Positions 4,477 to 29,792 of a stretch of 32,670 nt of DNA are shown piece after piece; position 1 is the first letter of the stretch, and each line of letters starts with the position of its first letter. The DNA is taken from the IMG/VR virus record IMGVR_UViG_3300045988_129198; one strand, given 5' to 3'. The notes beneath the pieces are model-generated. The model saw nothing but the letters and a program-made list of their open reading frames with translations. It did not search any database and was not told the origin of the DNA. Source of the DNA: a virus. Taxonomy: Duplodnaviria > Heunggongvirae > Uroviricota > Caudoviricetes. Both the position numbers and the translations under genes were made by a program.

Positions 4477-4896
4477 TCGTGTTTCCGCTTCGCCGGAGCG
4501 CCTTTTCGCGCCATGTGATGAGTTCGGTCAGGCTCATGGGATACAGTTCTGATGGCGGCCAGTGAAATATCACTGCCACATCCGCCATCAGGTCATCGAC
4601 CGAGAGATTTTTCGGGAACGTTACTGCACCGAGTTCGGCGACAAAAAACCGACCACCTTACCGGCCAGCGCCACAAGGTCAGGCAGTTCCAGCGCGGCGA
4701 CTTCCTGCTCGGTCAGCATCGGTGCCGTCATGCGCGGCAGCACCTTAATCAGTGCATCGACTTCGGAGTTCGCGACCGCAGCCAGACTGACACCGCGCAG
4801 CGTCCCGGCATTAGGTTTCATCAGCGTGACCTGTTCGATAACCTGCTCACCACGCTTGACCGGATTGTCCAGGGTAATCACATTTTCTTTGTTCAT
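4469..4896 (-). CDS. E+E': Tail assembly chaperone gpE+E', made by programmed -1 frameshift at the T6G slippery site (plus 4642-4649)
   Basis: After a -1 shift at GGTTTTTTG the frame stays open to TAA at 4469-4471, giving a C-terminus ...LITWREKALRRSGNTNE that overlaps the T start; this is the conserved E/E' arrangement. Confidence 0.75.
4621..4896 (-). CDS. E: Tail assembly chaperone gpE
   Basis: 91 aa, MNKENVITLDNPVKRGEQ..., P2 gpE-like; ends GFLSPNSVQ immediately after a TTTTTTG slippery heptamer. Confidence 0.9.
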   Translation of the reverse strand: MNKENVITLDNPVKRGEQVIEQVTLMKPNAGTLRGVSLAAVANSEVDALIKVLPRMTAPMLTEQEVAALELPDLVALAGKVVGFLSPNSVQ

Positions 4897-4952: not shown

Positions 4953-5471
4953 TCACAGGCCGATATTGCGGCGGTGTTGCTCCAGCCGGTCGACGCCGTT
5001 CACCTTCTCAATCATGTTGATGGTGTCGATTTCGACCAGCGCCTTACCGTCCATCGTCAGCCGGAAATAGGTGCAGACCACGGAGATTTTCGACTCGGTG
5101 TCTTCTCCCTGTTTGCCCTCGCCGGTGTCGATTTCTTTCTGACGTCCACGCATGACCACCTCGACGGCCACCGTTTCGCCGGTATCGTCGCGCTGGTAAG
5201 AGCCTGCAAAACGAATCGGTACGGAATCCACACCGGTTGCGGCGTAAAGCTCCCAGATAACCGAATCCGGGAAGCCACCGAGCGACCACTCCATTGACAG
5301 CGCATCGTCATCAAGGCCGAGGTCTACCGGTGCGCTGCCGTTCATCCCCGCACCGCGATAGTTTTCGAGCTTACGGGTCAGTTTTGGTAGCGTGACGGAC
5401 TTCGCGACGCCCTGATAGCTGTAGCCGTTCAGAAAGACGTTCATTAACTTGAGTTTGCGCGGCATTGCCAT
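4953..5471 (-). CDS. FII: Tail tube protein gpFII
   Basis: 172 aa; P2 FII length and position. Confidence 0.9.
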   Translation of the reverse strand: MAMPRKLKLMNVFLNGYSYQGVAKSVTLPKLTRKLENYRGAGMNGSAPVDLGLDDDALSMEWSLGGFPDSVIWELYAATGVDSVPIRFAGSYQRDDTGETVAVEVVMRGRQKEIDTGEGKQGEDTESKISVVCTYFRLTMDGKALVEIDTINMIEKVNGVDRLEQHRRNIGL

Positions 5472-5483
5472 CGGTCAGGCTCC

Positions 5484-6674
5484 TTAATTGCTGTTAACCG
5501 AGGTGACCAGATTTGCCAGGTATTTATCGGTAATACGCTGGCGCAGGGTCAGGTTTTCAAGAGGAGGCACCGGTGTATAGTCGTAGTCGATATACAGTTT
5601 TCCGGCCTTGAGGGTTTCCGCATCGTTGGATTCTTCGCTGAACCAGCAGGTCGCATCCACGATATAGCCGTTTGTTTTCAGCTCACGGAATTTGGCATTG
5701 ATGCCGTCAACGATGTCGCGAATCAGCGTTGCGGTGATGGGCTTGTCCACCGCCCACATGTGCGCCTCAGCCATCGTGTCGGCCATCACCTGCGCGGTGC
5801 GGGTGTAGTTTTCAAAGAGGAACAGCGGGTCATCAGAGCAGGTACGGTTACCCCAGAATCGGAAACCGTCGCGGCGAATCAGCGTAGTGACGCCTGACTC
5901 GTTAAGCAGGTCAGCATCGGTGCCGGACTCCTGCAAATCCCAGAATACAGATGCGCTGATGCCGGTAACACCGTTTACCCCGACGTTGGACAGCGTTTTA
6001 TGCCAGCCCTGCTCCTGGTCGATTTTAGCGCGCAGACCCAGCGCACGGGCGGTGGCATACGCGGTGGCGGTGGTACTGGTGACCGTATCCCATGCGAGGA
6101 AATCCGGCCAGATGACCATCAGCTCACGCTGGCTGAAATTCTGGCGGTAGGCTTTCACCTCGGAAATGGTCTTACAGCCCCATGCGCTGATATATCCGAA
6201 AGCGCGCAGCTTCTGACAGACGGATGCCAGTGCAACAGCCACCTCTTTGGTATCCAGTCCCGGCACACCGAGAATACGCGGTTTAACACCGGTTACCGAC
6301 TCCGCCGCCAGCAGGGCTTTTAGTCCGGTGTACTGACCGTTTTCGTCGGTGGTGCCGATGATATTGGAAACGGTCTGCGCGAGTTTCGTTTCCTCGTCAT
6401 CACCGGTGCCGTCTTCCACGCGCACGACAACGGTGACCGGTTTTGACTGGTCAGCGATGGCCTGCAACGATGCCGCCAGCGTGCCTTTTTTACCGGCCTT
6501 TGCAATTGCGCTTTGCACATTGGTAATCAGCACCGGTTTATTGAGGGGGAAGGTTTCCGCATCCGCATCGCTGGCCGTGCAGACCATGCCGACAATGGCA
6601 GTGGATACGGTGGAAATGACGCGGGTGCCGTCGTTAATCTCCAGCACCTGCACGCCATGATGATAGTCACTCAT
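5484..6674 (-). CDS. FI: Contractile tail sheath protein gpFI
   Basis: 396 aa; P2 FI length and position. Confidence 0.9.
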   Translation of the reverse strand: MSDYHHGVQVLEINDGTRVISTVSTAIVGMVCTASDADAETFPLNKPVLITNVQSAIAKAGKKGTLAASLQAIADQSKPVTVVVRVEDGTGDDEETKLAQTVSNIIGTTDENGQYTGLKALLAAESVTGVKPRILGVPGLDTKEVAVALASVCQKLRAFGYISAWGCKTISEVKAYRQNFSQRELMVIWPDFLAWDTVTSTTATAYATARALGLRAKIDQEQGWHKTLSNVGVNGVTGISASVFWDLQESGTDADLLNESGVTTLIRRDGFRFWGNRTCSDDPLFLFENYTRTAQVMADTMAEAHMWAVDKPITATLIRDIVDGINAKFRELKTNGYIVDATCWFSEESNDAETLKAGKLYIDYDYTPVPPLENLTLRQRITDKYLANLVTSVNSN

Positions 6675-6769
6675 CCGTTTAACTCCGTGGTTAATGGGTG
6701 CAACTATTTTCTGTTGTGCAGAGCATAAGACGCTATTTGACCTGGCTGGTCAGTGGATGAAACAACAGA

Positions 6770-6800
6770 TAAAGAAAAGGCGGGCAATTCGCCCGCCTGT
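6770..6800 (-). terminator. Intrinsic terminator between the accessory island / V-G operon and the FI operon
   Basis: GC stem AGGCGGGC-AATT-GCCCGCCT (6777-6800), followed on the minus strand by a T-rich tract (plus 6770-6778 aaagaaaag). Confidence 0.6.
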
Positions 6801-6853
6801 CCTGATTTGTACTCACTCATTTTCCGCCTGACAATTTACATAGCCCAAATGCT

Positions 6854-6876
6854 ATCAAATCTGACAGTCTGCTTTG
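6854..6876 (+). repeat. Repeat site L (core CTGACAGTCT), left boundary of the accessory cassette
   Basis: ATCAAATCTGACAGTCTGCTTTG; a near-identical direct copy at 9164-9186 and an inverted copy at 9287-9308. Confidence 0.7.
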
Positions 6877-7004
6877 AGCGAAAAGTGGACATTAGAGTTA
6901 CAAAAGCAAGTTTAAATCATCCAAAATATTACAATGTCCTTATCTATCTGATATCGTTATGATAAAAAGCTCCTGAATATAATCGATAGTAGGTGGTTAT
7001 TTCC

Positions 7005-7382
7005 ATGAAATCAATTTTAGAGGTTTTTACTCAAGGAAATACTAAAGAAAAACTGGCTGTTATCGCCGATCTCACAACCATTGCGGGAATATCGATTGCA
7101 ACTATTATTGCTGGTTTGTTAACCCTAGTTGCAAAAACAGATAAACTAGATATTGGAAATCTGTTTGGAGTTGTCATAATATCTCTGCTCGGATTGGCTG
7201 GTGTTTGCTGTTTTGTGGCCTTATTTATTTGGGTTATAACCCAAATGTCTAAACCATGGGGAACACCTCGGGGGGTTCAGCCCTTAGTTAAGTGTGCTAT
7301 TTCCCTTATCTTTATCTGTATGTTTTTACTGGCTGTCTTTACATTTTATGAGTTTATTTCTTCGATGAGCATACGCTATTGA
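7005..7382 (+). CDS. Small integral membrane protein (3 predicted TM helices), function unknown
   Basis: ATG at 7005 preceded by AGGTGG; the track ORF begins at GTG 6993. Three hydrophobic segments of about 20-25 aa; AT-rich codon usage unlike the phage backbone. Confidence 0.6.
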   Translation: MKSILEVFTQGNTKEKLAVIADLTTIAGISIATIIAGLLTLVAKTDKLDIGNLFGVVIISLLGLAGVCCFVALFIWVITQMSKPWGTPRGVQPLVKCAISLIFICMFLLAVFTFYEFISSMSIRY

Positions 7383-7404
7383 ATATAAAATCAGCCCCCA
7401 TAAC

Positions 7405-7989
7405 TTAAAAGAGACCTTCTATATCGACTTCAATGCCCAAATAACGGACTGTGCTTTCCAGTTTCTTATGGCCCAACAGAAGTTGGATCACCCGGAGACT
7501 CTTGGTTTTCTTGTAGATTAAGTAAGGTTTTGTTCTTCTCATGGAATGTGTGCTGTACAGCGAATCTTCGAGACCAAGCTTTTCTACCCACCCATGAAAA
7601 ATTCGGTTGTATTGCCGGGTTGATATATGGTGGTTAGTTCCGACCCGAGAGCGGAACAGGAAGCCTTTACTATGCAAGTTGCCGAGCTTTATCAATGCAG
7701 TAACCGCTTCCCTTGTCCCTTTGGTTATCTCAAATTGGACAGGGCTGCCGGTTTTCTGTTGCAACACCGTTGCTCTGCTTGAGACAGAACTGCCATATGC
7801 AGCATCTGATACTTTGAGTTTGACCAAATCACAGCCCCGTAGCTTAGTGTCCAAAGCCATGTTGAACAGAGCTAGATCGCGTGTTTTACCTTCCAACTCA
7901 AGTCTAATCCGGATCCCCCAGATATGAGATATCTGAAGTGGCCTTTTTTGACCGATGGTACGGTCTTTATTCCACGGTGACGTTTTCAT
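7405..7989 (-). CDS. Small tyrosine recombinase (FimB/FimE-like size, phage-integrase catalytic fold)
   Basis: C-terminal HSMRRT...LRVIQLLLGHKKLESTVRYLG resembles the HxxR / LGH / Y boxes of tyrosine recombinases, and LRGCDLVKLKVSD resembles box I. First ATG at 7987-7989 with AGGAG 7 nt upstream; the track ORF extends to a TTG at 8091. Confidence 0.7.
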   Translation of the reverse strand: MKTSPWNKDRTIGQKRPLQISHIWGIRIRLELEGKTRDLALFNMALDTKLRGCDLVKLKVSDAAYGSSVSSRATVLQQKTGSPVQFEITKGTREAVTALIKLGNLHSKGFLFRSRVGTNHHISTRQYNRIFHGWVEKLGLEDSLYSTHSMRRTKPYLIYKKTKSLRVIQLLLGHKKLESTVRYLGIEVDIEGLF

Positions 7990-8095
7990 ATTCAAATCTC
8001 CTGCAATGTGGGAGATTTGAGTATGGTTGTCTCTCAAGAGCGAAAATAAGTCAACTATCACTAGTTGTTGCGCATGTACGTATTCTGTCAATTAA

Positions 8096-8938
8096 TTATT
8101 GACAATCATCAATTCTGGAATGATCAAAATCATCATATCGAATTATAGTCTGGTTGACTGTATCTATTGTTGGTGTCATTTCTGTTATAATATCCTGATA
8201 ACCTAAAGAGTTAAATACATTTACTAAGGCCTCACACCGAAGGGCCGTAGCAATTACAAAATTATAAATTGCCAGCCGTTTATTTTCTTGTTTAACTGCA
8301 AGAATGAATTCGATAGCAGTATTTTCATCACTTTGGATTGCATTATATAGAGATACTATATTTACCATATCATCAGAGAATGTATGTATTGAATCACAAA
8401 GGGGAACGTAATGGGCATGATAGTGTGTTTCCCAGCCAATTAATTCAAAAAGTTTTCTGGTTCCTGGATATTCAGGTGTATTTGGCCACAATCTATTAAA
8501 TAGATCAGTTAGTTCTTTTCCCATGCGAATCCTTTCATTTGCTGCTGGATTAGTCATTCCTTTGGATTTTAAACACTCCAGCCACCGTTTTCCATTACTA
8601 TGAACTAATTTCTTACTAGCCTTGAGTAATGCTTGTGCATTTTCGCCATCATCTATTGCTATATAAAATTGATTGGCAGCCTGTTCTATTATAACCCTAG
8701 CTAATACTTCCGATGCTGAAAAGGCTCCTATATTCAAAGAAGAGATAGCCTGATTACTAAGTTCATTCAGTACATTAAAGTACTGTAAGACCATCAATTT
8801 TTGTTCCACACCCTTTAGGTTGTCTATTTTATTTTTATGCTCCTCAAATTTTGCATGGATATATTTATTTATCGCGGCTATTTTTTTTACATCTTCGTCA
8901 AGATCAAACGGGCAACGTCCAAACAATTCTTTTTTCAT
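8096..8938 (-). CDS. Hypothetical 280-aa protein (cargo gene, no motif recognised)
   Basis: ATG at 8936-8938 with strong AGGAGA RBS; AT-rich; located upstream of and co-oriented with the recombinase gene. Confidence 0.75.
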   Translation of the reverse strand: MKKELFGRCPFDLDEDVKKIAAINKYIHAKFEEHKNKIDNLKGVEQKLMVLQYFNVLNELSNQAISSLNIGAFSASEVLARVIIEQAANQFYIAIDDGENAQALLKASKKLVHSNGKRWLECLKSKGMTNPAANERIRMGKELTDLFNRLWPNTPEYPGTRKLFELIGWETHYHAHYVPLCDSIHTFSDDMVNIVSLYNAIQSDENTAIEFILAVKQENKRLAIYNFVIATALRCEALVNVFNSLGYQDIITEMTPTIDTVNQTIIRYDDFDHSRIDDCQ

Positions 8939-9163
8939 ATATTTCTCCTGTTGTACAAGCTTCCATACGTTGGCAGATTATACACTGAAGATTACCTATA
9001 AATAGCTGTGCGGGATAGCAGATCAGTGCAAGAAGTACAACCAAGTGAACTGTGCGTATTCAGATACCTGGCCTAACGTTCGCGATAGCCGTCCCCTGCA
9101 CGAAGCCATATATTAGATGTATTAGCTCAGACCTTATCTGACAGGTTGAGTAGGTAGAATCTA

Positions 9164-9186
9164 ATCAAAGCTGACAGTCTGGTTTG
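9164..9186 (+). repeat. Repeat site M (direct copy of L)
   Basis: ATCAAAGCTGACAGTCTGGTTTG, 21/23 identical to site L. Confidence 0.7.
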
Positions 9187-9286
9187 GACTGTGAGTTCAA
9201 CTGATGGATGCAACACACAGCGATCTACGGACATTACTAGCATAGCTGTGTATTAATCATCGGGAAGCAGGTCAGTCCGCTCCTAG

Positions 9287-9308
9287 CACAGAGCAGACTG
9301 TCAGATTA
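9287..9308 (-). repeat. Repeat site R (inverted copy of L/M), lying in the loop and 5' arm of a 10-bp-stem hairpin
   Basis: Reverse complement AATCTGACAGTCTGCTCTGTGC; 16 nt identical to L; flanked by stem 9284-9293 / 9316-9325 (TAGCACAGAG/CTCTGTGCTA). Confidence 0.7.
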
Positions 9309-9359
9309 GGCTTTACTCTGTGCTATAGATACGTTAGCTCACTCCAGAGATCATACAAC

Positions 9360-9887
9360 TTATTGCGGCATTTCCGGCCATTCAGGATTTGCAGGATCCA
9401 CACGGCTGACCAGAACACTGTAGCGTTCCCATGCTTCCAGTCGGCTACGCTCCTCATCTGTTGCCATATTCAGTCTGACAGAGCGTTCCAGTGGCTGAAT
9501 GATAGTTTCAGCTTCGGAAAGCAAAGCTGACTTCTGTAATTCCGCCAGTTGCAGCTGTTCGTCTGCCGTATAAATCCGCTTAATCACGGCACCATCCTTA
9601 AACATCCATTTACCTGAGTCATCAGCACGTCGGTTGGCGGTAATATCAGGAACCTCGACAACGCTAAAACCTTCAGGGTTGAGCGTTGAAGCATCTCTGG
9701 TGATGCCGACAATTATATTATTCTCATCGTAAACAATCTTTATCGTGTCTTCCTGAAAATTACTTACTTCCTCATACCAGTTTTTTCCCTCTTCGGACCA
9801 TAACCAGATAACATCAAAATTTTTTGTCAGTTGATATTGGGCAACAGTTTTTGGATTACCCGCAGTAATATTTTTTAAATGCTGCAT
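9360..9887 (-). CDS. G: Tail fiber assembly chaperone gpG
   Basis: 175 aa; P2 gpG size; immediately downstream of H. Confidence 0.85.
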
Positions 9888-9890
9888 AAA

Positions 9891-12626
9891 TTACACCTGT
9901 GCGACGTTATACCATGTGCCATTGATGTATTTTTGTATTGGTCTGAATACTGCGGGGTCATCACCATCGACTTCACCGACAATACCAAGCCCGGTAATTA
10001 CGTGCCCTGCTTTCTCATACATCACCCCTTTCTGCATGGTCTGGACAACACGTGTGCCAAGTCTGACATCTCTCACATAGCGGGAATCAAAGTTACCGTA
10101 ATCCGAGGGATTAACACGCCCCGTAATATTTATGGTTTTATTACTTTGAACGCTTCCGGAGACAAAGCGCATAACATGGACGCTATTAGCATAAACATCC
10201 AGATTACCATCACCATTTTGTTTAAAGCCCGTGTCATTATCACCCAAAACAATCGAATTACCGCCAAGAGCACTGGATGTTCCTATACCCAGAGCACCAT
10301 TCAATTGACCACCAGATAACGGCAGTGCACCGACATCTCCCGCTGTAGGTTTTCGCGTTGTGGTATAAAACTCAGACCAGTCAGCCTCGAATCCGTAACC
10401 GTCACGAGCAGAACGATAAAAAATACCACCGTTCTTATAATTAACGCGAAACTGGGCGGCGGGACAACTTCCTTCCCCGATATTAAAATGAAGAATTAAC
10501 GTTGATGCCCCACCAATAGTTGCGTTATAGGCTCCGCTACTCCAGTTCCATCCAACGGCTTTATCATTCGCAACGGTGTCTCCTGTTTTTCCTGAAGCAA
10601 ATGCACCAATACTTTTCGGCGTCAGGTTAATATCTGATGTTCCATCAAACGAAACGTTATTAATTTTACGGGCTGTTTTCAGCTTTGTTGCTGTCGCCGC
10701 ATTGCCGGACAGTTCACCAGAAAGGCCAGCACTGAATGTCTGTTTCGCGCCCCATGTCTGGGCTTCGTCAATGATTGGTACTCGTCTTGTTGTGATCGTG
10801 CGGCCTCCCGGATTTCCTGAAATGCGCACCATAAAAAAGCGGTAGTTGGCTTTACTTACAGTGCTGCGCCATACATGCATTGAGCGCCCCGAACCAGAAT
10901 CATCACTCGGACCGACTGAGATGTTTATCAGGTTGCCATCAATGACGCCCCAGTCCATACCGTCGGGAATGTTGGTCATATTATCAAGCCGAACGGTTAT
11001 CAGACTGCCCGGCACAAAATCGTAGGTCTGCCAGTCCAGACTGGATAGTTTTGCCACTGCGCCACCGATGCCCAGATTCAGAGGCAACGAAAAGGAGTTA
11101 TATACTTCTCGCCATTCGGTCCATTTGCTCCCGGCATAGACGCGCTCAAAAGTGCGCCCCTGTGTGGTTTCTGATTTCCCTGTGGTTGTGTAACGCTGCC
11201 AGACAGATACACCATCAAAACGCCTGATTACTTCCAGTATTCCAAGCAGTGTCGCTCCAGCGGTATCCTGCATTGGACCGTTTGACGCCTTCCCTGTAAC
11301 GCTGTAAATGCCTGGCGAAGTCAGATCATTCAAATCACCTTCGTAATAACGACATTCTGACTGATGGCCTACTCTTGACCACGGCTCCCACTGTGGGTTC
11401 TGTGCATTCCATATAGCAGAAAGGCAGCGAACATATACGTTCCCACGGCGGGTCGTATAGCGTTGCGTGCGTGAGTACCCACCACCCTCAAGAACTTCAA
11501 GGAATCCCTGACCATAACTTCCTTCTTCCGGATAGTTGCGGTCAAATGAAGCGATAGTGCCACTACTGTTTCGCCATAAACCAAGATGCTCTGCGCCTCC
11601 TAGCGTGTTCAGGTCAATAGTTGTGCTCAGGGGGCGTGTTGCAGACTGAATCTGACGCCAGTAGATCCACGGACCGTCTGAGCCATTCCAGGTGCCAGAA
11701 AGATTACGCATATAAACATTGCCAGTTCTGGTGGTATAACGCTGCATTCCGGAAAAATTACCGCCATTGAATACCTCAAGAACACCGACTGCACCGTCTT
11801 CAGGGAAATTTTTCTCCAGTGTTGCGTTGGAGGATGTGGATTTATACCAGACACCCACATAAGCCTTAACTGGACCAAATGTATTGAGATCAGCATCAAC
11901 CGGCATTTCGCCGTTGTTTTTCATAAACGTCAGGCTGGTAACACCAATATTGTCCAGAAAAGCTGATTTATCCTGGATATCTGCACCGTTCTGATTTTTC
12001 GCCAGACGTGAATTTGCGTTGTCATTTGCTGCCTTGACCGCTTTTGGCGTTGCCGCCAGCTCTTCACTGGTGCTGTTTGTTGCACTGCTTAACTGAGTAA
12101 AACCTTTTTCTGTCAGCGTGGCGTCAGGATGGCGGCGGGACTGCTCATGCTCTGCGATTTTGTCATCGACGTAATCCTGCGTCGCCATCACTGTGCTGGC
12201 ATCAATACTCAGCTCAACGGACGCCACGTTGCTGAGAATAATAACCATGCGGCAGGTCTGCGCACGTCCGGAGCCTTCAGCCAGTTCTGGCTTATAGCTT
12301 TCAGCCATGTTGGATACCGCAATCAGTGTTCCGGCATCGTCATACAGACCAAGCTCACGCATCCAGAAGCCGCCCACTTCGGGCGGTACAACCAGTTCAG
12401 CCACAATATAGTTTTTATTCTTATTATCCACACTGACTTTATTCAGAGCGTGACGCCAGACCTCATGCACCAGTTTCGTCTGACCGGCATCCGGCACCGG
12501 TAATTTGCCATTACCGTCACCCACGGCCATTGCAGACAGGTTTACTTTTTTCCCGCCGGGGACAGTGGCGGCTGCCAGCTTTGCGGCTCCGGCAGTAGTG
12601 ATAACGGTTTTAAATTTCGTGCTCAT
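9891..12626 (-). CDS. H: Tail fiber protein gpH (911 aa, three internal tandem repeats, extended C-terminal region)
   Basis: N-terminus MSTKFKTVITTAGAAKLAAA is the conserved P2 H baseplate-attachment region; three repeats of about 90 aa each contain QRYTT(R/T)xGNVY. Confidence 0.9.
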   Translation of the reverse strand: MSTKFKTVITTAGAAKLAAATVPGGKKVNLSAMAVGDGNGKLPVPDAGQTKLVHEVWRHALNKVSVDNKNKNYIVAELVVPPEVGGFWMRELGLYDDAGTLIAVSNMAESYKPELAEGSGRAQTCRMVIILSNVASVELSIDASTVMATQDYVDDKIAEHEQSRRHPDATLTEKGFTQLSSATNSTSEELAATPKAVKAANDNANSRLAKNQNGADIQDKSAFLDNIGVTSLTFMKNNGEMPVDADLNTFGPVKAYVGVWYKSTSSNATLEKNFPEDGAVGVLEVFNGGNFSGMQRYTTRTGNVYMRNLSGTWNGSDGPWIYWRQIQSATRPLSTTIDLNTLGGAEHLGLWRNSSGTIASFDRNYPEEGSYGQGFLEVLEGGGYSRTQRYTTRRGNVYVRCLSAIWNAQNPQWEPWSRVGHQSECRYYEGDLNDLTSPGIYSVTGKASNGPMQDTAGATLLGILEVIRRFDGVSVWQRYTTTGKSETTQGRTFERVYAGSKWTEWREVYNSFSLPLNLGIGGAVAKLSSLDWQTYDFVPGSLITVRLDNMTNIPDGMDWGVIDGNLINISVGPSDDSGSGRSMHVWRSTVSKANYRFFMVRISGNPGGRTITTRRVPIIDEAQTWGAKQTFSAGLSGELSGNAATATKLKTARKINNVSFDGTSDINLTPKSIGAFASGKTGDTVANDKAVGWNWSSGAYNATIGGASTLILHFNIGEGSCPAAQFRVNYKNGGIFYRSARDGYGFEADWSEFYTTTRKPTAGDVGALPLSGGQLNGALGIGTSSALGGNSIVLGDNDTGFKQNGDGNLDVYANSVHVMRFVSGSVQSNKTINITGRVNPSDYGNFDSRYVRDVRLGTRVVQTMQKGVMYEKAGHVITGLGIVGEVDGDDPAVFRPIQKYINGTWYNVAQV

Positions 12627-16277: not shown

Positions 16278-16307
16278 CTTTAGTTTTAACGTATTCTAAC
16301 AGAAGAC

Positions 16308-16333
16308 TGCTGCCGGTAAGCACCGGCAGCAGC
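16308..16333. terminator. Hairpin between the convergent RelA/SpoT-like gene and S
   Basis: Stem CTGCTGCCGGT / ACCGGCAGCAG with 4-nt loop; only a modest U-tract on either strand. Confidence 0.45.
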
Positions 16334-27722: not shown

Positions 27723-29792
27723 TTAAAATCGCTCACCACTTCTTTGCTGTCGATATCGCCGCTGTATATGGCATTTCAAAACTTCCCTAAATACCAACAC
27801 AGCTTCGGGGTCATCCCATGCTATAACACCGTCATCAACCAGATTAAGCACGGCTGCAGCATGTTCAGAAGGTGTGGGAGCCGGTAACGAAGTATCACTG
27901 CCGGTGAGCTTTCCACAGTTATTGACAGGACTCCGAGGCGCGGCGATGCCGCTTTTTAAAGTCAAAGGCTCAACGACCGGAACTTTCGGCACAATGCGCC
28001 AGTCCGTCGTTCTGGTGATATGAATATGACGCGCGCCGAGATGCGGCGCGTAAATGCCGACCACTCTCTCAACTTCTTCCTCGTACTCGTTAACGTCATC
28101 CGACGGGCTACGGGCAACCCTGACAGTCTGACAATCGCGCGGGACATTTGCCCCACCCTGCGCGCTGATATACAACGCAAAATCACCACTGTCTGCGGCA
28201 GCGCGAGCAGCCTCGACGCGTTCGTCAAACTCATCAGCAATACTGACGCCGCGAGGCAATTTGCGTAGTTCACGGTAAGCCCCCATTGTCGGCAGTCCAA
28301 CCGTTTTAAATTGCGGGATGCGCCACGTTGACGCCCATGCGGTAACAGCCGCGGCAGTATCTTTAAGCGGCTTACCGGTATCGTTATCGAGCTGACCATC
28401 CAGTGCATAGCCGTCGATATTTTTTGAAATGTATTTCGCGATATATCCCGCAGCACCGCCCCGGTTAAGGTGTTTTGCCTGAAAACGGTTTCGCGCAGCT
28501 CCTCTTTCATCGCCATCCTCTTTGAGCGCATAGCGACGCATGATTTCGATAATCTGGTTACGCTGGCGCGGATTACAAAAAAGCATCATATGCCAGTGCG
28601 GCGTTCCGTCGTGGTGTGGCTCGACGACACGCAAACCGTAGACCTGTAAATCATTATCCTTGAATGCCGTGCGCATCAGGCTCCAGATACGGCAGAGATA
28701 ACGCTGCGCATCCTTTGGATTAAATGCCTCATCGTTCCAGCCGTGATTAAGCTGCACGGTTTTACTTTCGCCTTTTCCGACCTGACGTGTCGGGTGATAC
28801 TTTGACGGCGCGGTCAGCGTGATAAACATCCCCACATCACCCTCTGCGGCGGCGTAACGCTCAATACCGGCAATGGTGTTCATCAGCTCCATCCGGCGAA
28901 TTTCAGGATTAGAAATACTGCCCATCACCTTACTGATAAGGTCGATGCGCTCGCCGGTTTCCCTGTTTTCGAGGTCACACGATTTAAGAAATTCCAGATT
29001 TGCCTGGCGGCGCGCACGCACATCACGAATGGCATGTTTACTGGCATAAGGAGAACGGTCTTTATTGACCTCCCCGACAGCTATCAGTAACGCCTCATGC
29101 CAGCGCATACGCTGGCCTTTAAGCTGATGAGTCCACCACTCATCGTTAAACAGGCGGGCAATGGCAGAATATGCCTGCCTCGTGGTCATCTGTCCTTTAC
29201 GGTATTTTTTCCAGTAGAGAGGGGAAATATTGAAAGCACGTGCAGCGCCAGCAACATGACCATACAGGTGAGCCTGCGCCTCATCCGTAAACAGCGATTC
29301 TTTTTCGCCATGCGCATCCACCCAAGCATCGCTGAGTTCCTCATACATCATGAAAAGCTGCGATGAGATACGGGCGGCAAACTTTTTCAGCTCCTTGTCA
29401 TTCATTCCCGGCAGTCGCGCATAGTGGTCACGCTCTGCCAGAAACAGCAACGACGCGTCGGTGTTCATTTCATGGCGCTGATTCACACGCTCAATGCGCG
29501 GCCATAAACGACGCTGAAAAGTGGATGTGAGGAAATAAAACCCGTGCACCGGGCTTTTATTGCGCCGGATGTAGTCATAGCGTGAAGTAAACAGCGAGCG
29601 CAAAAAGTAAGGCAGGCGGTTAATCGTGGATAAAACACCTTGCACCTGACGCATCTCGTCACGTGTAAGGGGTCTTTCGCGCCCGACAGCCTCGCGTGGC
29701 GCGTTCCATGCATAAGCACCGGTAAACGCCTTACCGGTGCCTGCAGCAAATGCTGACGGAGGGACAAAACGCCCGGAGGCTTTAACGGCCAT
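27723..29792 (-). CDS. A: Replication initiation endonuclease gpA (rolling-circle)
   Basis: About 689 aa from the ATG at 29790-29792 (MAVKASGRFVPP...); the track ORF starts at an upstream TTG. P2 gpA-like and directly downstream of the orf80-83 cluster. Confidence 0.85.
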   Translation of the reverse strand: MAVKASGRFVPPSAFAAGTGKAFTGAYAWNAPREAVGRERPLTRDEMRQVQGVLSTINRLPYFLRSLFTSRYDYIRRNKSPVHGFYFLTSTFQRRLWPRIERVNQRHEMNTDASLLFLAERDHYARLPGMNDKELKKFAARISSQLFMMYEELSDAWVDAHGEKESLFTDEAQAHLYGHVAGAARAFNISPLYWKKYRKGQMTTRQAYSAIARLFNDEWWTHQLKGQRMRWHEALLIAVGEVNKDRSPYASKHAIRDVRARRQANLEFLKSCDLENRETGERIDLISKVMGSISNPEIRRMELMNTIAGIERYAAAEGDVGMFITLTAPSKYHPTRQVGKGESKTVQLNHGWNDEAFNPKDAQRYLCRIWSLMRTAFKDNDLQVYGLRVVEPHHDGTPHWHMMLFCNPRQRNQIIEIMRRYALKEDGDERGAARNRFQAKHLNRGGAAGYIAKYISKNIDGYALDGQLDNDTGKPLKDTAAAVTAWASTWRIPQFKTVGLPTMGAYRELRKLPRGVSIADEFDERVEAARAAADSGDFALYISAQGGANVPRDCQTVRVARSPSDDVNEYEEEVERVVGIYAPHLGARHIHITRTTDWRIVPKVPVVEPLTLKSGIAAPRSPVNNCGKLTGSDTSLPAPTPSEHAAAVLNLVDDGVIAWDDPEAVLVFREVLKCHIQRRYRQQRSGERF

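Follow-up and report, generated by a model that had tools for sequence, protein, structure and literature searches.

The perfect hairpin that lies just downstream of gene G in a P2-like prophage is part of the inverted repeat already annotated as flanking the Z/fun locus of phage P2. With moderate confidence, we interpret this hairpin as a palindrome internal to the B end, one of the two ends of a mobile cassette platform, and as a likely DNA-level recognition element, through a mechanism that we infer from sequence comparisons. The platform would have arrived once in an ancestor of the P2-like phages by a transposition-like event, and recombination inside or at the platform ends would later have exchanged its cargo. 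The two arms of the palindrome may be inverted binding elements for a tyrosine recombinase or some transposase, acting in duplex form or after extrusion or folding into a hairpin, and the palindrome would give the B end an identity distinct from that of its partner, the A end. The DNA analyzed here (hereafter the window) is a stretch of 32,670 nucleotides from a P2-like prophage that is near-identical to one in E. coli S88; the features of its cassette locus are listed in Table 1.

Table 1. Features of the cassette locus in the window, with the evidence for each assignment.
Feature	Position	Strand	Evidence or remark
B end = P2 Z/fun "left inverted repeat"	9275..9357	-	AJ512680 homology; nhmmer match to repeat profiles; conservation with other cargo
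Palindrome outer arm	9316..9325	-	TAGCACAGAG on minus strand; family consensus TGGCACAGAG
22-nt loop	9294..9315	-	Repeat core AATCTGACAG on minus strand
Inner arm and inner-end motif CTCTGTGCTA-GGAG-CGGAC	9275..9293	-	Position-wise conservation; variable cargo directly beyond
A end = right inverted repeat, beside FI promoter	6808..6890	+	Homology to B end
CCTGATT, decayed 7-bp target duplication	6801..6807	+	5/7 match to partner
ACTTATT, second decayed 7-bp copy, overlaps G stop codon	9358..9364	+	5/7 match
DUF5677 protein gene, cargo	8096..8938	-	Pfam PF18928 E = 5e-10; RefSeq annotation
Short tyrosine recombinase gene, catalytic domain only	7405..8091	-	Pfam PF00589 E = 1.4e-17
129-aa hypothetical protein gene, cargo second unit	6993..7382	+	Sequence looks hydrophobic by eye
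Truncated third A-type copy (A')	9118..9189	+	Profile positions 4-78; faces B end, cut after ...CTGGTTTGGAC
~85-bp IS30-family remnant (TGTGAGTTCAACTGATGGATGCAAC...)	9190..9274	+	Fills gap between A' and B end
Canonical intrinsic terminator (GGCGGGCGAATTGCCCGCC then T-run)	6778..6798	-	Terminator scan; between A end and FI promoter

The hairpin downstream of gene G

The arms TAGCACAGAG (9284-9293) and CTCTGTGCTA (9316-9325) are perfectly complementary and form a 10-bp stem around a 22-nt loop that includes AGACTGTCAGATT. The core of this loop, CTGACAGTCTG, is present at 6861 and 9171 and, in inverted orientation, at 9294. Coordinates, pairing, and core recurrence all match an earlier note on this DNA, which had described a 10-bp stem with a 22-nt loop presenting a repeated core in an ORF-free stretch; the latter is also as described, given that the 421 bp from the stop codon of G to the 280-aa gene (8939-9359) contain no ORF of at least 60 aa. 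A fourth copy of CTGACAGTCTG at 28120 was set aside as a chance occurrence because it lies within a long ORF, has dissimilar flanks, and was not called by the repeat profiles.

Folded as single-stranded DNA, the hairpin reaches -8.6 kcal/mol (z = -2.1). Across 200 dinucleotide shuffles of the window, perfect 10-bp stems with loops of 3 to 30 nt occurred at a mean of 1.0 per shuffled window, with at least one in 53% of the shuffles, and the same search found five in the actual window. Other perfect 10-bp hairpins lie at 4549-4591, 16307-16332, and 29716-29740. Since such hairpins arise about once per window by chance, any significance must come from conservation, and the hairpin is indeed kept in over 100 distinct homologous ends of the repeat.

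This stem-loop does not serve as the late-operon terminator. No T-run follows the stem on either strand and the terminator scan did not call it, which agrees with the earlier judgment that it is not a canonical intrinsic terminator. An intrinsic terminator was therefore rejected, also because a canonical one exists elsewhere, at 6798-6778, where it is likely the true stop for minus-strand transcription. In P2 itself, the stem homologous to this terminator is degenerate, and the P2 record annotates another terminator inside the cargo.

The hairpin lies in a repeat that flanks the Z/fun locus

Read on the minus strand, the B end runs from its outer terminus TGTATG at 9357 to its inner terminus ...GGAGCGGAC at 9275. 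Its A partner agrees with it at the outer terminus (TGTAC...) and at the inner terminus (...AAAAGTGGAC); the two ends are homologous over about 85 nt, with their inner 33 nt 82% complementary, and the A end has no stable hairpin (DNA fold z ~0). The region 9275-9389 of the window matches positions 1-115 of AJ512680 with 93% identity over 115 nt and matches AJ512676 with 90%. In the GenBank records AJ512676, AJ512680, and AJ512685, the homologous 113 bp directly 3' of G are annotated as "left inverted repeat" and 91 bp beside FI as "right inverted repeat". These are the inverted repeats that Nilsson, Karlsson, and Haggard-Ljungquist reportedly described in 2004 on either side of the Z/fun lysogenic-conversion locus in P2-like coliphages, and the P2 Z/fun repeats are thus the same element as those of the window, with the inverted partner next to the FI promoter and non-essential cargo in between.

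The segment 9275-9359, hairpin included, is found at 87% to 92% identity in about 370 other E. coli P2-like prophages that carry different cargo and lack the rest of the intergenic region, while 8939-9274 is found only together with the DUF5677 cargo. Because 9275-9359 is conserved without this cargo-linked portion, the hairpin belongs to the phage backbone and sits at the exact boundary between backbone and cargo (9275). The stem is hence conserved in related prophages, as the earlier note had asked of it, both at this locus and in the distinct homologous ends counted above. Directly outside the two ends, the window and other P2-like phages show a 7-bp direct repeat with five of seven positions matching (p ~0.013), which fits an old insertion.

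Cargo and gene order

On the minus strand, the tail fiber gene H and the tail-fiber assembly gene G (9887-9360) are followed by the 421 non-coding bp, the DUF5677 gene, and the recombinase gene, and then by a small plus-strand gene and the tail sheath gene FI. Within this order, the B end is followed by the IS30 remnant, the inverted A' copy, the DUF5677 and recombinase genes, the 129-aa gene, the A end, the terminator, and the FI promoter. The terminal repeat of the IS30 remnant is the same as that of an intact 1.2-kb IS with an HTH_38+rve transposase gene that occupies the same position of an A end in another locus (L152). By this layout, the cargo of the window forms two tandem units, of which the first has been emptied and holds an IS scar. 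PADLOC gave no match for any of the three cargo proteins.

The DUF5677 and recombinase module, together with a 337-nt upstream region, is shared at 87% to 90% identity between P2-like and lambdoid prophages (window 7423-9274; L005 2568-4317, L006, L129). The shared module ends at the same nucleotide (9274/9275) at its boundary toward the B end, and the recombinase gene is a pseudogene in the lambdoid copies. These lambdoid copies also adjoin a B end, of a divergent type, about 50 nt past the end of the module. Between the stop codon of the DUF5677 gene and the start of the recombinase gene in RefSeq there is a near-perfect hairpin of 19 pairs (7986-8026), seen as a self-inverted BLAST match and kept in the lambdoid copies.

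The proximity of a recombinase gene to inverted repeats raises the idea of a fimS-like invertible switch, in which the neighboring recombinase would use the inverted copy at 9168-9195 to turn around some 100 bp that lie upstream of the DUF5677 gene. The repeats in question (9168-9195 and 9280-9307) are 28 nt long and 75% complementary, and the recombinase is of about the size of FimB and FimE, but its score of 19.4 bits is far under the cut-off of 222 for the invertase subfamily. Furthermore, 38 of 38 E. coli loci with at least 99% identity are colinear over the 421 bp and none carries an inverted allele, what separates the repeats is the IS30-family remnant and not a promoter cassette, and the hairpin is present in hundreds of phages without the recombinase. 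A FimB/FimE-type switch was rejected on the first three of these grounds (score, lack of an inverted allele, IS30 remnant), and we regard inversion at this site as extremely unlikely.

Conservation of the palindrome

Throughout the repeat family, the palindrome is confined to B ends, where its consensus TGGCACAGAG-N22-CTCTGTGCCA folds as single-stranded DNA at -13 kcal/mol (z = -4.35), compared with z ~0 for A ends. Watson-Crick pairs make up 79% of the stem cells over 62 distinct sequences, and each of the central six stem pairs is Watson-Crick in 48 to 58 of the 62. Covariation is marginal: 85.8% of stem cells pair compared with 85.3% after shuffling, only 5 cells change on both sides, and the covariation score of 0.124 (shuffled mean 0.113) was reached by 24 of 500 shuffles. 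The compensatory changes are few, namely A-T for G-C at pair 2 (in the window), GAC/GTC at pair 10, and G-C at pair 9. Because stem covariation is this weak, the arms could be conserved as sequence rather than as structure. Divergent lambdoid-type B ends have kept the arms (GGCACAGGG...CTTTGTGCC) around different loops, and among ends selected without any loop pattern the loop core is at least 80% to 90% conserved. The inner end is conserved through AGCGGAC-N-TT, with an NN dinucleotide as its sole variable part, and cargo-linked polymorphisms start within the loop and not only at this dinucleotide.

Since cargo-linked polymorphism starts within the loop, homologous recombination between the repeats would suffice in place of a site-specific exchange. 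The palindrome might then have no function of its own and be an accident in a repeat that is kept only as homology for RecA- or phage-mediated cargo exchange. The entire 83 bp are about equally conserved, mismatched stem variants are tolerated, covariation is weak, and polymorphism that begins inside the repeat is what homologous crossovers predict. However, the arms persist across genera and in lambdoid-type B ends with altered loops, the palindrome occurs strictly in one of two otherwise homologous ends, the few double changes (pairs 2, 9, and 10) restore pairing, and the inner arm recurs beside a recombinase gene (see below), so that we consider a functionless palindrome unlikely.

Conservation also bears on the proposal, made in the earlier note, of a structured RNA element, which could be a 3' stabilizer, a processing site, or a factor-dependent terminator of the late V-W-J-I-H-G transcript, or could insulate the cargo from late transcription. 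The hairpin is well placed for such roles on the minus strand, 35 to 76 nt past the G stop codon (9360-9362), its stem is present in the RNA minimum-free-energy fold with 12 pairs, and several one-sided stem changes are compatible with G-U pairing. Yet these G-U-compatible changes are as frequent for the opposite strand (39 versus 37), the 106-nt RNA fold is ordinary (z = -1.1), and Rfam 15 gave no match at the gathering threshold for the whole window and nothing relevant at E <=5 for 6650-9450. These strand-even changes, the negative Rfam scan, and the ordinary RNA fold therefore disfavor a role as RNA and favor a DNA-level element. The absence of a U-tract, the canonical terminator at 6798-6778, a putative V-operon terminator that the P2 record places about 365 nt downstream of G and thus away from the hairpin, and the same palindrome in B ends of many unrelated transcriptional contexts all speak against an RNA element as well. 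With an empty Rfam scan, weak covariation, and no strand bias, the structured-RNA proposal found no support, and we deem an RNA-level function quite improbable.

A family of cassettes with paired A and B ends

The repeat is not limited to P2-like phages. A defective lambdoid prophage (Rac/DLP12-type) has it beside a TolA-like accessory gene and a tRNA-Ser island also contains it, as do plasmids from Pantoea, Salmonella, Yersinia, and Klebsiella and the chromosomes of bacteria such as Erwinia, Morganella, Mixta, Kosakonia, Xenorhabdus, and Acinetobacter. Pairs of A and B ends occupy unrelated sites across more than 10 genera, and in profile searches across about 280 fetched loci all 114 of 114 convergent pairs consist of one A and one B end, whose inner ends (...AGCGGAC) face each other over 0.1 to 8 kb of variable cargo. 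Directly outside the TGTATT termini, 13 distinct insertions show perfect direct repeats (7/7, zero offset; chance 6e-5 each) such as TCTCAGG, TTTCATG, CTTAATC, and GCTAATA, and these perfect 7-bp duplications flank pairs outside P2-like phages. Cargo differs behind identical outer flanks, and many of the cassettes carry defence-like genes. The Pfam domains of 28 large cargo ORFs were mostly of defence-like, metabolic, or transport kinds, with one unrelated IS110 among them.

All-against-all clustering of 342 cargo ORFs revealed no recurrent transposase, and no transposase was found in large cargos or in unpaired ends with long interiors. The combination of paired repeats, target duplications, and variable cargo without a transposase is the signature expected of a non-autonomous transposon-like platform whose contents are presumably exchanged. 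For the L127 insertion (Rac/DLP12-type), a single site, the empty junction was found in none of 5,426 E. coli genomes while the filled site was found in 785. The wider cassette family is apparently undescribed; literature searches on the core sequences, the 7-bp duplications, and non-autonomous cassettes with defence genes brought up no relevant report.

Several features of individual cassettes were seen in passing. The cargo of four loci (L208, L210, L212, and L237) includes an E2/multi-ubiquitin and ThiF-JAB set (ubiquitin-like conjugation), a CHAT protease with HEPN/Toprim, patatin-SLOG with TIR, and HD-domain dGTPase-like genes. In different genera, one and the same position of A and B ends, right after ...TTTGAGC or ...CTGTGCC and just past the inner arm, has been hit repeatedly by IS30-family elements and by at least one further IS type, which ends in CAGGCTGTGTGAAAAC (window 9190-9274; L152 322-1542; L147, L173, L195, L133, L236, L261). 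This position resembles a sequence- or structure-specific insertion hotspot. One cassette family interrupts, within its stem-loop, the intrinsic terminator that follows a vbhA antitoxin gene (insertion point between AGGCTAACT and GGATGTTAGCCTTTTTT; L155 1575-7845; L128/L280 ~1345), and its 7-bp duplication GCTAACT derives from the terminator stem. Short palindromes such as GTCCGCTCTTTGCACAGAGCGGAC resemble two inner ends fused head to head (L287 ~5000-5100; L291 ~10300-10400; L280 7600-7660) and may be emptied cassettes or products of recombination.

A link to a short tyrosine recombinase

Homologues of the window recombinase were sampled by protein, independently of the repeats, and gave 15 contexts with a readable 3' flank. 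In 12 of these 15, the sequence ...TTGTCAG-GGCTGCAACAGCAGCC-CTGTGCC-ANNAG-CGGAC lies within about 45 nt of the recombinase stop codon and is followed by unrelated DNA. This motif is equivalent to the hairpin's inner arm joined to the inner terminus of a B end, and a 58%-identical homologue shows the same layout with a different hairpin. Downstream of the site there is usually an inverted A end; "recombinase gene plus site" therefore replaces the B end in these cassettes. The L292/L293 lineage has a B-outer-like sequence, outer arm included, at 97 nt upstream of its recombinase gene, and the gene there takes the place of the loop. Such a B-outer-like sequence upstream of the recombinase gene was significant only in this lineage and in true B ends, and hairpins presenting the core near recombinase genes are no commoner than background (~7%). 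In a single case (L286 6610-6650), some 370 nt before a recombinase homologue, the same core appears as TTAATCTGACAA in the loop of a 7-bp stem whose sequence, ACAGGGG/CCCCTGT, is unrelated.

Only about five cassette types carry the recombinase gene. The window copy lacks its native site, as comparison of 3' flanks shows that its last codons and native 3' flank were replaced from ~7423, and all of its NCBIfam matches are far below the cut-offs. The same short recombinase (89% to 94% identical) also occurs with other upstream genes instead of DUF5677, including genes for an alpha/beta hydrolase, a pentapeptide-repeat ion-channel protein, and hypothetical proteins (L152 1653-3361; L237 643-3195; L280 5437-7538).

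Recombinase genes commonly adjoin their own sites, and for this reason the recurrence of CTGTGCC-ANNAG-CGGAC next to these genes is circumstantial evidence, though not proof, that the motif may be a recombination site. Of the earlier proposal of a recombinase-binding cruciform, binding of a recombination protein has become the best-supported reading, but neither this cargo nor the neighboring recombinase has the hairpin to itself, and the link to the recombinase is indirect. Tyrosine recombinases are not known to generate target duplications.

A further-reaching proposal unites these observations, and we put it forward tentatively, as possible rather than probable. The A/B pair might be an unrecognized, widespread platform of Enterobacterales that was seeded by transposition and whose cargo is swapped at CTGTGCC-ANNAG-CGGAC by the minimal tyrosine recombinase. 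The gene of this recombinase would have held the place of the loop in ancestral "long" B ends, so that the B hairpin would be both its recognition structure and the scar of gene loss, and Z/fun would be one ancient insertion.

An attC-like recombination site of an integron-type system that acts as a folded single strand also comes to mind, since the imperfect palindrome marks the boundary of a cassette, with a tyrosine recombinase close by and with variable cargo of single genes. But the recombinase scores 17.9 bits against a cut-off of 435 for integron integrases, the GTTRRRY/RYYYAAC boxes were not seen in the 83-bp end, the ends are inverted and not direct, strand asymmetry is absent, and 7-bp target duplications flank the unit. 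Membership among integron attC sites was rejected because the recombinase is not of the IntI type, the boxes are absent, and the ends are inverted; an attC-like mode of action thus seems very unlikely. Our favored reading remains that of a B-end palindrome as a probable DNA-level recognition element.

Comparison with known systems

Mobile insertion cassettes and those class 1 integrons that have lost tni genes and lie between IRi and IRt are non-autonomous cassettes bounded by transposon ends. Like such cassettes, the A/B platform has long inverted repeats at its termini, duplicated target sites, and passenger genes, and it lacks an internal transposase. Similar to class 1 integron remnants, some A/B copies have a tyrosine recombinase gene beside one end and a variable cassette beyond it. 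Tn402-type elements generate a 5-bp duplication, whereas the A/B platform has a 7-bp duplication, 83-bp ends of two types, and a minimal catalytic-domain recombinase that is not IntI and that most copies lack.

In layout, the ends themselves resemble those of complex-ended DDE transposons (Mu, Tn7, IS21, Tn552), with which they share 5'-TG termini, a length of about 80 to 100 bp, and a difference between the two ends. As in these transposons, the A/B ends contain an internally repeated motif, with CTGACAG occurring twice about 33 bp apart. Duplications of 6 to 7 bp are made by Tn552. No MuA, TnsB, or IstA-like gene was found in or beside about 115 cassettes. IS21 has multiple direct repeats per end and a terminal CA, and the ends of Mu and Tn7 likewise contain several copies recognized by their transposases (PMC10122671); the IS21-family element assayed in the same study generates 5-bp duplications (PMC10122671).

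Rho-independent terminators and REP-type mRNA-stabilizing hairpins are comparable insofar as a stable stem-loop directly follows the last gene of an operon, but the B-end hairpin differs from them in that it lacks a U-tract, has a loop of 22 nt, and is not conserved in a strand-specific way, and a separate canonical terminator lies 2.5 kb downstream.

P2-like phages have two variable loci that are reported to include anti-phage genes, Z/fun being one of them, and the literature that we found does not address the mechanism of cargo turnover at these loci. Should the palindrome be only a relic in a patch of homology, the repeat would be an ordinary one that is already annotated. If instead Z/fun is a transposon-like platform, cargo exchange would gain a concrete and testable mechanism with a dedicated recombination motif, and plasmids, lambdoid prophages, and chromosomal islands would have the same platform ends in common. 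This would provide a mechanism for the turnover of defence genes across phages, plasmids, and chromosomes, and the 83-bp ends would be a simple sequence handle, or bait, for new defence cassettes.
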